Positions 11,498 to 15,691 of a DNA stretch of 34,890 nt are shown here, one piece after another. Both the position numbers and the translations under genes were made by a program. The DNA is from a virus. The stretch is taken from the IMG/VR virus record IMGVR_UViG_3300043372_000028. The stretch is one strand, 5' to 3'. The notes under the pieces were generated by a model. It was not told the DNA's origin. It ran no database searches and saw only the letters and a program-made list of their open reading frames with translations. Position 1 is the first letter of the stretch; the number at the start of each line of letters is the position of its first letter.

Positions 11498-12082
11498 GTG
11501 GCTGCATACGGGTCAGGACGATACGGCTACGGCCCTTGGAGCATTGGCGAAGCCAGTGCTGCATTAACGGGCAACGCCTCCACGCTTGCCATCGGTTCCC
11601 TGCTTGCCAGCACATCAATCCAGGAAGATGGGACGGTTGCTACCGGCAGTGTTGGGACTGTAGGCATAACGTACTCAGTTTCCATTACTGGAAATGCATC
11701 CACGGGTTCTATAGGAACCATCCTAGCTGCTCCGATTGCCACCGGCAATAGTGCAACTGGCTCCGTAGGAACGGTGAGTGCTGAAGTCATATCGTTCCAG
11801 GACATCACTGGAGTAGATGGAACTGGCTCAGTTGGCACTGTCGCAAGTGTCATATCAATTGAGATAATTGGGAACAGCGCAACTGGTGCGGTTGGGATAG
11901 TCATTGGGTTTGGGTGGGGCGCGATACCAGATACGTCCGAATCATGGAGCGCGATACCCGATACATCAGAGACGTGGACAGCTATTGCCAATACGTCTGA
12001 GACTTGGACGCCGGTATCTGACACCAGTGAAACATGGACAGATATATCCGATAATGCAACAACGTGGCAAGAGGCCGCATAG
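11498..12082 (+). CDS. Tail fibre-like repeat protein
   Basis: GTG start with GAAGGGG 8 nt upstream. Contains GN(A/S)(S/A)TG(S/A)(V/I)G(T/I)V repeats and five tandem 10-aa repeats of the (I/V)xDTSE(T/S)W type. Confidence 0.65.
   Translation: MAAYGSGRYGYGPWSIGEASAALTGNASTLAIGSLLASTSIQEDGTVATGSVGTVGITYSVSITGNASTGSIGTILAAPIATGNSATGSVGTVSAEVISFQDITGVDGTGSVGTVASVISIEIIGNSATGAVGIVIGFGWGAIPDTSESWSAIPDTSETWTAIANTSETWTPVSDTSETWTDISDNATTWQEAA
11924..12073 (+). repeat. 5 x 30-bp in-frame tandem repeat inside the fibre-like gene
   Basis: Units start at 11924, 11954, 11984, 12014 and 12044. They encode IPDTSESWSA / IPDTSETWTA / IANTSETWTP / VSDTSETWTD / ISDNATTWQE. Confidence 0.85.
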
Positions 12083-13732: not shown

Positions 13733-13966
13733 ATGGAATTCCAGCCAATGTTCAACTTTATCGGTGGCGCAATCCTGGTTGCCGTTGGCTGGTGGTGCAA
13801 AGAGATATGGGACTCAGTAAAGTCGCTGAAGGAAGACCTAAAAGCCATTGAGATTGATCTGCCAAAGCACTACGTCAGCAAGGCAGACATTGAGAGCCGC
13901 CTGGATAAGATCGACGCAACCTTAGAGCGAATCTTTGACAAGCTAGAAAACAAAGCAGACAAGTGA
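13733..13966 (+). CDS. Small membrane protein with N-terminal TM helix and coiled coil
   Basis: 77 aa, GGAG RBS. TM segment FIGGAILVAVGWWC followed by a charged heptad-like region. Confidence 0.6.
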   Translation: MEFQPMFNFIGGAILVAVGWWCKEIWDSVKSLKEDLKAIEIDLPKHYVSKADIESRLDKIDATLERIFDKLENKADK

Positions 13967-14130
13967 TTGACCAGGTTGTCTCAGCGGAAAGCCCGTGGCC
14001 TAACACTGAGACAAAGACCGTTTTGGTTTGTCGTATTCCTAAAACAGATGAGGACAAGAAGATGGGTGCAAACGAATTCACTGACAAAGACGGACGCATC
14101 TGCCGCTGGGTAGTTGTGAACAAGAAGTAA
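13963..14130 (+). CDS. Possible small protein (55 aa, GTG start), not in the ORF track
   Basis: GTGA overlap at 13963 and a TAATG junction at 14130. It fills a gap, but no motif was recognised. Confidence 0.35.
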   Translation: MIDQVVSAESPWPNTETKTVLVCRIPKTDEDKKMGANEFTDKDGRICRWVVVNKK

Positions 14131-14617
14131 TGGACCCGTTCACCGCATTCGCTATGGCACAAGCTGCCGTTGCTGGCATAAAAAAGCCATTGCTCTTGGT
14201 AAAGACATCCACGGCCTCTACAAAGAATTTAGCAGTTTTTATCAAGCAGCGGATACAGTTCACCTAGCAAGCAGCAAAGCCAGGATTGCTTCAATAGGAA
14301 AATCAAATGCACAGATCAGTTCCGAAGCACTCCAAATTGCACTGGCATCCAAGGCGTTGCGAGAGCATGAGAAGGAACTGAAGGACATCCTTTTCTATAG
14401 TGGCAACGCGCCGGTCTGGGAAGAGATGATGGCAGAGCGCACCAGATTGATAAAAGAGCGCAACACATTGGAAAGAGAAGAAGCGGAACGCAAGCAAAAA
14501 GACAAAGAGATGAAGGTTGCAATTATTATGAACACACTCTGGATTTCCGGTGCATCCGCGATTATTGTTCCACTAGTCAGCATCACGTTTCATGTTATTA
14601 CCAATAGGGGTTTCTAA
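14130..14617 (+). CDS. Membrane protein encoded in two frames: 19 codons in frame 0, then a -1 shift at 14180..14186, then 143 codons
   Basis: ATG 14130 is coupled by TAATG to the upstream ORF. The -1 frame is open from 14120 to 14617 but has no ATG/GTG/TTG before 14357. The joined product, MDPFTAFAMAQAAVAGIKK|AIALGKDIHGLYKEF..., reads as one protein with a C-terminal TM helix. Frame 0 alone ends at TAG 14265..14267 (45 aa). Confidence 0.55.
14180..14186 (+). promoter_or_regulatory. Candidate -1 ribosomal frameshift heptamer A_AAA_AAG (or a homopolymer indel site)
   Basis: In the ATG-14130 frame the codons are ggc atA AAA AAG cca, the X_XXY_YYZ pattern of the E. coli dnaX shift site. Confidence 0.45.
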
Positions 14618-15129
14618 TGATTCCAATCATCGGCGCACTACTCAGCACGTTAGCTGAAAGCGGTTTAGGACTGCTGTCCAGCGCTATCCAGGCCAAGGGC
14701 AAGGAGGTGGTCGAGAACACGCTTGGAATCAAGATTCCCGATAACCCAACTCCCGCTGACGTTGAGCGCCTGCGCGAGTTGCAGTACCAACATGAGGAGC
14801 GCCTGATTGAGTTGGGCATTGAGAAAGCCAAGCTAGAGATGGCCGAGTTGGAACTGCTGGCAAAGGCTGCACAGTCTGATGCGGAGAACGTCACAGACCG
14901 CTGGCAGGCAGACATGAACTCCGACTCTTGGCTCTCAAAGAACATTCGGCCAATGAGCCTGATTGCTATCTTTATGGGGTACTTCCTGTTTGCCATGATG
15001 AGCGCATACGGCCTCAACGCCAATGAGTCCTATGTGACCCTGCTGGGTAACTGGGGGATGCTGATTATGGGTGCGTACTTCGGTGGACGTACTGTCGAGA
15101 AACTTGCTGAGATGAGGAGCAGCAAGTGA
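14617..15129 (+). CDS. Putative holin (multi-TM, resembles the 3-TM holin family linked to gene-transfer-agent release)
   Basis: 170 aa. Hydrophobic N-terminus, charged coiled middle, then DSWLSKNIRPMSLIAIFMGYFLFAMM and LLGNWGMLIMGAYFGG TM helices. It lies two genes upstream of the endolysin. Confidence 0.55.
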   Translation: MIPIIGALLSTLAESGLGLLSSAIQAKGKEVVENTLGIKIPDNPTPADVERLRELQYQHEERLIELGIEKAKLEMAELELLAKAAQSDAENVTDRWQADMNSDSWLSKNIRPMSLIAIFMGYFLFAMMSAYGLNANESYVTLLGNWGMLIMGAYFGGRTVEKLAEMRSSK

Positions 15130-15356
15130 AAGCAAAACTGACGTTCCTCGTGACCTTGATGGTCAGCTTTACGCTGTGCGTTGTCATTATTGGAATGGTC
15201 GCGGTGCTGATGGCTGGCCTGTTTGACCCAATCGTGGACAACGGCGAAATCTTCAAGCTCATCAGCCCTGCTTTCCAGACCATCGTCGGTGGCTTCATTG
15301 GATTGCTGGCGGGTGTGAAACTGTCCCACGGAGAGAAAGAAGAGGAGCCAAAATGA
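15126..15356 (+). CDS. Small two-TM membrane protein (possible holin/antiholin partner)
   Basis: 76 aa, GTG start in a GTGA overlap. Two hydrophobic helices and a charged C-terminus, EKEEEPK. Confidence 0.5.
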   Translation: MKAKLTFLVTLMVSFTLCVVIIGMVAVLMAGLFDPIVDNGEIFKLISPAFQTIVGGFIGLLAGVKLSHGEKEEEPK

Positions 15357-15691
15357 GCCTAAGTCAAGAGCAAGCAGCTTTCCTGCTGGATATGTGCAAG
15401 CTGATTCAGTACGCAACTGACCAGGGTTTCATGGTCACTGGTGGCGAGTTAGCCCGTACACCGGAGCAGCAGGCCATCTACGTCAAAACAGGCCGGTCTA
15501 AGACCATGAATTCCATCCACCTCAAGCGGTGCGCGATGGACTTGAATTTTTTCAAGGATGGAAAAATTGTTTGGGATAAAACAATCCTTGCTCCTGTTGG
15601 CGCGTACTGGGAAAGCCTGTACCCTAAGAATCGGTGGGGCGGCAACTTCCGTTCATTGGTAGACTGTCCTCACTTTGAACGCAACGTATGA
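15353..15691 (+). CDS. Endolysin, peptidase M15 (VanY / L-alanyl-D-glutamate peptidase-like)
   Basis: 112 aa. Zinc-ligand pattern SIHLKRCAMDL (H-x6-D) plus DCPHFE, and RTPEQQ upstream. Typical of small M15 cell-wall peptidases. Confidence 0.8.
   Translation: MSLSQEQAAFLLDMCKLIQYATDQGFMVTGGELARTPEQQAIYVKTGRSKTMNSIHLKRCAMDLNFFKDGKIVWDKTILAPVGAYWESLYPKNRWGGNFRSLVDCPHFERNV

Follow-up and report, generated by a model that had tools for sequence, protein, structure and literature searches.

Results

Layout of the locus

The IMG/VR virus record IMGVR_UViG_3300043372_000028 holds 34,890 nucleotides, which are given as one strand and referred to here as the window, and the subject of this report is a gene lying directly upstream of a holin-like gene whose conserved protein appears to be made only if ribosomes change to the -1 frame at the heptamer A_AAA_AAG. 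An earlier note, made from the sequence alone, had described the gene as two frames that could be joined at this heptamer, and its description of the locus was borne out. The start ATG 14130 is overlapped by the TAA of the upstream open reading frame (ORF) 13963..14130 in a TAATG, and the frame which it opens (frame 0) ends after 45 codons at TAG 14265-14267. An open stretch of the -1 frame extends from 14120 to 14617, with TTG 14357 as its earliest ATG, GTG or TTG. Frame 0 reads the codons ATA AAA AAG, which puts A_AAA_AAG, a heptamer of the X_XXY_YYZ type, at 14180-14186 in the right phase for tandem -1 slippage, and AAAAAAG occurs only at this one place in the 34.9-kb window. A -1 shift here would give a product of 162 amino acids (aa) whose TAA 14615-14617 overlaps ATG 14617 of the next gene, again as TAATG. 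The C-terminal transmembrane (TM) helix that had been proposed for this product is backed by a hydrophobic stretch at residues ~128-159, and the proposed holin identity of the gene at 14617 by its match to a PHROG family. The coordinates of all features are collected in Table 1.

Table 1. Features of the frameshifted gene and its surroundings (positions in the window)
Feature	Coordinates	Strand	Basis
Upstream 55-aa ORF	13963..14130	+	TAA overlaps ATG of the frameshifted gene
Zero-frame segment, codons 1-19 (MDPFTAFAMAQAAVAGIKK), N-terminal Ala/Gly-rich helix	14130..14186	+	Frame-0 codon diversity, homologue N-termini
Slippery heptamer A_AAA_AAG, in phase with frame 0	14180..14186	+	Invariant in 114 distinct genes
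Segment in the -1 frame, codons 20-162 and TAA 14615-14617 (AIALGKD...NRGF), including the predicted C-terminal TM helix	14186..14617	+	-1 codon diversity, gap-free homologue alignment
Zero-frame tail, 26 codons, TAG 14265-14267; would be read by non-shifting ribosomes	14187..14267	+	No coding conservation
Candidate stimulatory stem, 5' arm (GCUCUUGG)	14192..14199	+	5 nt past heptamer; predicted to pair with 14242-14250
Candidate stem, 3' arm (UCAAG-C-AGC, C14247 bulged)	14242..14250	+	Covarying pair 14194:14248
Upper, weaker hairpin (14200-14206 with 14235-14241) and loop	14200..14241	+	Includes constrained synonymous patch 14222-14236
Holin-like gene, ATG overlapping the -1 frame stop (TAATG)	14617..15129	+	phrog_3427, E 4.6e-14
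Rest of lysis cassette: 76-aa membrane protein (15126-15356), M15 peptidase endolysin (15353-15691)	15126..15691	+	Pfam Peptidase_M15_4 2.3e-7; PHROG endolysin families

The frame break in related sequences

Two explanations of the frame break had been offered in the earlier note, programmed frameshifting and a one-base deletion error in the run of A, together with a comparison of orthologues as a means of telling them apart. For this comparison a clade was defined by at least 75% aa identity to the window, with sequences from JGI, ENA and Logan assemblies, and the census was made with a degenerate DNA pattern which accepts a run of either six or seven A (A6 or A7). All 114 distinct gene regions found in the clade have A6, with ATA-AAA-AAG and the frame break, and there is no A7 allele among them. 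A7 is confined to distant clades of 34-59% identity, in which the gene is in frame, and because it is reported there the assemblies can evidently tell the two run lengths apart. Among the 80 closest IMG/VR loci, 79 have ATAAAAAAG and the frame break; these loci represent 69-70 distinct gene sequences with a median pairwise identity of 83% and a minimum of 76%. After two further searches 92 of 107 distinct genes were frame-broken, with the heptamer in every broken one, and pairwise nucleotide identity among the frameshift genes falls to 72-76%. Contigs from ENA and Logan likewise show the A6G state. The N-termini of six public protein clusters (P0006-P0009, P0011 and P0012, from JGI, ENA and Logan) correspond to the window's -1 frame upstream of the A run, which indicates that the same break is present in independent assemblies. 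Recurrence of heptamer and break together in 114 distinct relatives goes far beyond chance, and the comparison, with two frames kept around a conserved heptamer and no A7 in the clade, decides in favour of frameshifting.

One lineage within the clade (L001, P0001-P0005) has a single frame. It reads GGC ATC AAA AAG GCC, so that the heptamer is lost, and it is not A7. In the same lineage (L001:3001-3477 of IMGVR_UViG_3300013014_000081) an extra base after CCT TTT near codon 6 breaks the ATG frame; the ORF now begins at a TTG 4 nt downstream, with the N-terminus LILFVAFALAQ as against MIDPFTAFA, and the two alternatives for its start are use of this TTG or a +1 slip at TTT C. A reading in which the repaired L001 had relaxed the downstream synonymous sites was dropped, since L001 sits in the second frameshift subclade, described below, which carries that downstream sequence anyway. 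A megablast search of the locus against GenBank phages gave no match, and at the protein level GenBank phages gave distant matches only, each of them a single ORF at the syntenic position.

Two frames that encode a single protein

Diversity by codon position and the ratio of synonymous to nonsynonymous changes were analysed in 92 distinct frameshifted genes. In frame 0 of the segment 14136-14177 diversity at codon positions 1, 2 and 3 is 0.05, 0.04 and 0.54, while in the -1 frame it is 0.06, 0.01 and 0.36 across the overlap region (14186-14264) and 0.12, 0.03 and 0.39 beyond it. Synonymous and nonsynonymous changes in the N-terminal segment number 28295:6136 when counted in frame 0 and 316:33513 in frame -1; in the overlap region the pattern is reversed, with 38582:6245 in frame -1 and 4649:39993 in frame 0. 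These substitution patterns indicate that purifying selection changes frame exactly at the heptamer and that both segments are one protein, which would exclude a pseudogene and leave the zero-frame tail as non-coding. The length of this tail differs by subclade, being 26 codons in most and a single codon (AAG CGG TAG or AAG CAG TAG) in one large subclade. As the tail is not conserved, the 162-aa trans-frame protein would be the functional product. The earlier note had foreseen a 45-aa and a 162-aa product, of which the longer is conserved, while the shorter, with a tail of 1 or 26 codons that evolves as non-coding, did not hold up as a product in its own right.

With the fused 162-aa sequence as query 585 homologues were found in all, and several hundred of them are single ORFs of ~161-163 aa that align without gaps across the junction. 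The cluster P0025 is an example, with the N-terminus MIDPFTAFALAQGAVEGIKA and the junction GIKAAVALGKD. Public clusters P0006-P0012, P0010 and P0014-P0028 are mis-annotated, either with wrong-frame N-termini or as truncated calls of 133-140 aa from internal TTG or other starts, and a joined coding sequence should replace them.

Synonymous constraint at the slip site

Ten bases, 14178-14187, are invariant in the frameshift genes. The codons ATA, AAA and AAG of the heptamer show zero synonymous variation, as do only 8.9% of degenerate, amino-acid-conserved codons gene-wide, and the third positions adjacent to the heptamer have an entropy of 1-1.9 bits. The in-frame sister clade encodes the same G-I-K-K-A with ATA AAA AAA, ATA AAG AAA or ATT AAG AAA, and more distant in-frame clades have ATC AAA GCN at the slip-site codons. 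This constraint shows selection on the slip signal itself.

The zero-frame TAG at 14265-14267 shows a conservation of its own. A TAG is present in every frameshifted gene, including the subclade that stops one codon past the slip site, and it is also kept where the overlapping -1 Leu codon became Ile (ATA G); the A of TAG 14265-14267 is invariant despite a 4-fold degenerate site (window 14264-14267).

A predicted stem downstream of the heptamer

The stem made by the two arms listed in Table 1 is predicted to begin 5 nt past the heptamer, and RNAalifold gives the same stem. Across 63 distinct sequences 96% of cells are paired in this stem, compared with 33-57% when the partner is slid by 1-3 columns. 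The pair 14194:14248 is U-A in 38 of these sequences, C-G in 25 and broken in none, and the pair 14199:14242 is G-U in 38 and G-C in 25. Two synonymous sites inside the stem are invariant, namely Leu CTT 14195-14197, a 6-fold degenerate codon (in the main clade), and Gln CAA 14243-14245. Full pairing (8/8) is found in 87 of the 92 frameshift genes, compared with 4-5/8 in the A7 sister clade.

To guard against recombination mimicking covariation, linkage was calculated for 151 polymorphic sites in 87 main-clade genes, that is for 11,325 site pairs. The median r2 among these is 0.03, and r2 reaches at least 0.99 in three pairs only. Two of the three are adjacent bases of Ser TCN/AGY switches and the third is 14194:14248, which makes it the sole non-adjacent pair at this level and the sole such pair among the 1,200 that lie 40-70 nt apart. 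On a neighbour-joining tree built from the rest of the gene it flips ~7-8 times. The stem probably stimulates the slip.

Other features of the hairpin were noted alongside. After the pair 14194:14248 itself, the sites most tightly linked to it are 14251 (r2 0.79) and 14239 (r2 0.72). The upper helix contains A-C or C-A mismatches in 14-21 of the 63 sequences, and genes with the stronger C-G pair tend to have TTC at 14237-14239, which gives an A-C mismatch in this helix; this hints that stem stability is being balanced. In the hairpin loop the five codons at 14222-14236 (AAA GAA TTC AGC AGT, encoding K-E-F-S-S and containing the palindrome GAATTC) have near-zero synonymous variation in the main clade. 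A search for a pairing partner of this patch gave only one G-U-rich 7-bp option, GCAGUUU (14232-14238) with GGAUUGC (14283-14289), where the Ile ATT is invariant, and these two segments could form a pseudoknot.

The predicted protein

The fused product matches phrog_32327, a family of unknown function, over residues 1-144 (E 2.3e-10). An AlphaFold model (pLDDT 82) has four helices, the last of which enters the C-terminal hydrophobic segment, and according to this model the product is a tail-anchored helical protein. Neither a Pfam family nor a PDB sequence match was found for the 162-aa protein. Foldseek gave no significant match in the PDB, the best (E 0.5) being to generic helical bundles including syntaxin-like ones, and in BFVD it matched uncharacterised phage proteins only. 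Two identities were rejected. A canonical spanin would have an N-terminal TM segment (i-spanin) or an N-terminal lipobox Cys together with a C-terminal TM segment (u-spanin), whereas the sole strong hydrophobic segment here is C-terminal and there is no cysteine. A paralogue of the holin is likewise not indicated, because BLASTP against the adjacent phrog_3427 holin gave E 7.2 and no holin PHROG or Pfam family was matched.

Genome context and the lysis cassette

The window is a podovirus-like phage segment with terminase, portal, scaffold, major head protein, tail fibre, lysis genes, exonuclease and primase-helicase, and the closest records are uncultured spring and freshwater phages. The frameshifted gene follows the tail fibre, and holin and endolysin come directly after it. 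In 85 of 89 frameshift-clade genes its stop overlaps the start of the next gene, which is a homologue of the phrog_3427 holin in 66 of the 89; in the remaining ones the next gene encodes another holin-like protein, or a TM/coiled-coil protein is inserted and the holin follows. The endolysin has been swapped for a GH108 type in some relatives while the frameshifted gene persists. Roseobacter phage CRP-701 and Limnohabitans phage DC31 have distant homologues, each a single ORF, in this same position between the tail fibre and the genes for holin and endolysin.

Comparison of close relatives (L355, L356, L020 and L025) with window 14617-15691 shows a mosaic lysis module. The endolysin is an M15 peptidase or a GH108 + PG_binding_3 protein, the holin is of the phrog_3427 type or a different 165-aa protein (MEWLKTIAP...), and in some genomes the protein inserted between the frameshifted gene and the holin is the TM/coiled-coil protein, of 115 aa. 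In one distant in-frame relative (L081:1992-2165) the stop of the homologue overlaps, by 1 nt, the start of a gene for a 57-aa protein that carries a lipoprotein-like signal (MKKFILSLCLCIAPALC), an arrangement that recalls an i-spanin/o-spanin pair. The family also has in-frame members on IMG/VR contigs of 100-260 kb (L083, L088, L090, L104, L128 and L155), which could be jumbo phages or prophage-bearing fragments; the family is thus not limited to small podovirus-like genomes.

Promoter-like and terminator-like sites are not in excess between the upstream 55-aa ORF and the frameshifted gene, and tRNA genes are absent from the window. Elsewhere in the window, codons 4-6 of the terminase large subunit (ATG GCT ACA AAA AAA AAT; ORF 1127-2554, intact) contain an in-frame run of nine A at 1135-1143, a length within the range described for bacterial transcriptional slippage. 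Before the tail fibre lies an ORF of 194 aa (11498-12082) with GNSATGSVGTV-like repeats followed by W-x-x-I/V-x-D-T-S-E-T/S-W units (WSAIPDTSESWSAIPDTSETWTAIANTSETWTPVSDTSETWTDISDN).

Discussion

Mechanism and alternatives

The mechanism best supported for the expression of this gene is that tRNA-Lys slips by -1 on A_AAA_AAG in the ribosome, with help from the 3' stem, and we consider it highly likely. Of the two explanations in the earlier note it is programmed -1 frameshifting that gains from purifying selection in both frames and from a covarying stem 5 nt downstream. Ribosomes would initiate at ATG 14130 and read 19 codons; with AAA in the P site and AAG in the A site of the heptamer a fraction of them would slip back one base, probably promoted by the stem and its extension through the weaker upper helix, and would continue in the -1 frame to TAA 14615-14617 to give the conserved 162-aa protein. 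Ribosomes that do not slip would make a short peptide of 45 aa here and of ~21 aa in the sister subclade, the tail of which is not conserved. For making the conserved protein the frameshift is, as far as the reading frames indicate, obligatory. That the slip is ribosomal, how efficient it is and what purpose it serves are all inferred from sequence.

Several observations weigh against this reading or parts of it. The frameshift is not indispensable, since the lineage of L001 regained a single frame. The stem has the spacing (~5-9 nt downstream) and the covariation looked for in a 3' stimulatory structure, but the folding energy of the hairpin is no better than that of shuffled sequences (z -1.3 to +1.2, no member significant), covariation on both sides occurs at one pair only, and the second frameshift subclade (L150, L161, L162, L172 and L175) differs: it keeps the heptamer with a different sequence downstream, has a C:C mismatch at the equivalent of 14194:14248, and for the 5' arm at this position only a distal CCAAGGC is predicted as a partner. 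In some distant in-frame relatives 7-8 of the 8 stem pairs are possible as well, so that the amino-acid sequence accounts for part of the pairing potential. A 5' stimulator resembling a Shine-Dalgarno (SD) sequence, which a dnaX-type cassette would have ~10 nt before the heptamer, was not found, the upstream anti-SD duplex having -3.7 kcal/mol against a background of -3.05 +/- 2.25, and the presumptive region of such a stimulator varies at synonymous sites. Host scans returned only short contigs binned into metagenome-assembled genomes of mixed phyla, and no host or tRNA-Lys set was assigned. Finally, the trans-frame product is itself a prediction from the sequence.

The same protein could also arise from transcriptional slippage, if RNA polymerase inserted an extra A at A6 and the A7 fraction of the mRNA gave the 162-aa protein by normal translation. 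The protein would be identical, the phase of the run is fixed by I-K-K coding and so cannot discriminate between the two, and polymerase slippage at GAAAAAA amounts to ~2% in potyviruses (PMC5009743). Bacterial transcriptional slippage, however, has been described for runs of ~9 A or T (PMC5009743), whereas the run here is exactly A6 in 114/114 sequences and never longer, the conserved covarying structure lies downstream at the spacing of ribosomal frameshifting and not in the upstream nascent RNA, and there is no phage RNA polymerase among the window's large ORFs. We therefore regard slippage of the polymerase as very unlikely. A frame break in a homopolymer also resembles contingency loci and decaying genes, so that the gene might be a pseudogene, or a phase-variable switch that is OFF in the majority allele. 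The strong purifying selection, acting on each segment in its own frame down to 72-76% nucleotide identity, and the lack of any ON (A7) allele among the 114 distinct sequences leave only a slight chance for this explanation; A6 is, moreover, short for a contingency tract.

Even slighter is the chance that there are two genes, one for a short N-terminal peptide and one further downstream with internal or non-canonical initiation, as is suggested by gene callers which gave 133-140-aa products from TTG or other codons in some relatives. The main clade offers no ATG, GTG or TTG in the -1 frame for 171 nt past the slip (the first is at 14357), although the stretch shows strong conservation at the protein level; a Leu codon that is a TTG in the second subclade is an invariant CTT in the main clade, and homologues carry both parts in one ORF. 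The least probable of all, to a degree that is practically negligible, is the one-base deletion error, although a true A7 would give one clean plain ORF and homopolymers are error-prone on some platforms. The 114 distinct A6 sequences from independent assemblies, none of them A7, have many substitutions in their flanks and come from dozens of samples and three pipelines, while the same data sets report A7 in sister clades. The in-frame lineage within the clade uses ATC AAA AAG G and not A7, and invariant synonymous sites together with a covarying stem are not expected from an artefact.

Origin and possible purpose of the frameshift

The A7 state of the in-frame sister clade suggests an origin by loss of one A. 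Probably an ancestral in-frame ATA AAA AAA GCN became ATA AAA AAG CN and was then kept by selection, and such a loss yields the frame break and the shift-prone heptamer together. In bacteria of the E. coli type no other -1 heptamer is as prone to shifting as A_AAA_AAG (PMC5009743). Reversion to A7 would be one easy mutation, yet it was found in 0/114 sequences and a single lineage was re-framed, for which reason the frameshift seems to be kept by selection. With more than 100 freshwater phage sequences and two natural controls, the in-frame A7 sister clade and the repaired lineage, this gene offers a clean test case for the question why a frameshift is maintained by selection and not simply repaired.

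The site ties decoding efficiency to the lysis module, and the likely purpose of the frameshift is a fixed, low or defined dose of a membrane protein of the lysis cassette. Since only shifted ribosomes would terminate at the holin ATG (TAATG), the shift may also meter the translationally coupled synthesis of the holin; the downstream gene has an SD-like sequence of its own, and the coupling is suggested by the overlap. It is more speculative, and in our opinion rather unlikely, that the frameshift acts as a lysis-timing valve. Its efficiency would then jointly set the dose of the tail-anchored protein and, through re-initiation at TAATG, of the holin, it could follow tRNA-Lys modification or the translational state of the host, and the unshifted peptide of ~21-45 aa, Ala/Gly-rich and helical, may act on the membrane or the holin like an antiholin. 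If true, it would add frameshifting for the first time to the ways in which phage lysis is controlled.

Comparison with known systems

To our knowledge, known frameshifts of tailed phages are almost all in structural genes, such as tail assembly chaperones and capsid or tail decoration. On the sequence evidence assembled here the gene of the window contains a real programmed frameshift, in a gene context from which none has been reported earlier. Full-text literature searches, the PRFect paper and the 2016 review of recoding (PMC5009743) gave no prior frameshift in a phage lysis-cassette gene.

The earlier note had called the heptamer dnaX-type, and this label stands for the heptamer and the 3' stem but not for the SD-like 5' stimulator, nor did any Rfam family match at E <= 10 in 14000-14700. 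Escherichia coli dnaX (tau/gamma) has the identical in-phase A_AAA_AAG with a 3' stem-loop a few nt on (5 nt here), and its mechanism is re-pairing of tRNA-Lys (PMC5009743). In dnaX, however, shifting truncates the protein and each of the two products has a function, whereas here the shift, at codon 19, would give the full protein, and the tail read without a shift lacks conservation. The orfA-orfB genes of the IS3 family (IS911, IS150) are alike in having A_AAA_AAG and a downstream structure in a mobile element, with a trans-frame fusion as the key product made at a set level. Their OrfA, in contrast, is a conserved functional zero-frame protein, in place of which there is here a 21-45-aa peptide with a non-conserved tail, and IS3 family genes are unrelated to this phrog_32327 gene.

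The G/GT tail assembly chaperone of lambda shares with our gene a conserved -1 slip in the late operon of a tailed phage, which sets the ratio of products. In G/GT the slip occurs close to the 3' end of G, in the interval between the major tail and tape-measure genes, and the two products have a large domain in common; the site described here is instead near the 5' end of a gene in the lysis cassette. Membership in this class was rejected, because the gene stands between the tail fibre and the immediately following holin and endolysin, with the slip at codon 19 of its 162. A decoding-level device on lysis-module genes has a parallel in stop-codon recoding, which is proposed to regulate phage late and lysis genes (bioRxiv 10.1101/2021.08.26.457843), although that device is a codon reassignment and belongs to other phage lineages.

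The last class to be compared is corrective or compensatory frameshifting of fixed indels, as defined in Atkins et al. 2016 (PMC5009743). The gene in the window resembles it, in that it looks like a 1-nt deletion in an ancestral A7 which is decoded around, and in that the unshifted product appears dispensable. It differs from mere compensation by the invariant synonymous sites and the covarying stimulator that are kept across a large clade, which points to selection for the frameshift itself and not to its tolerance.

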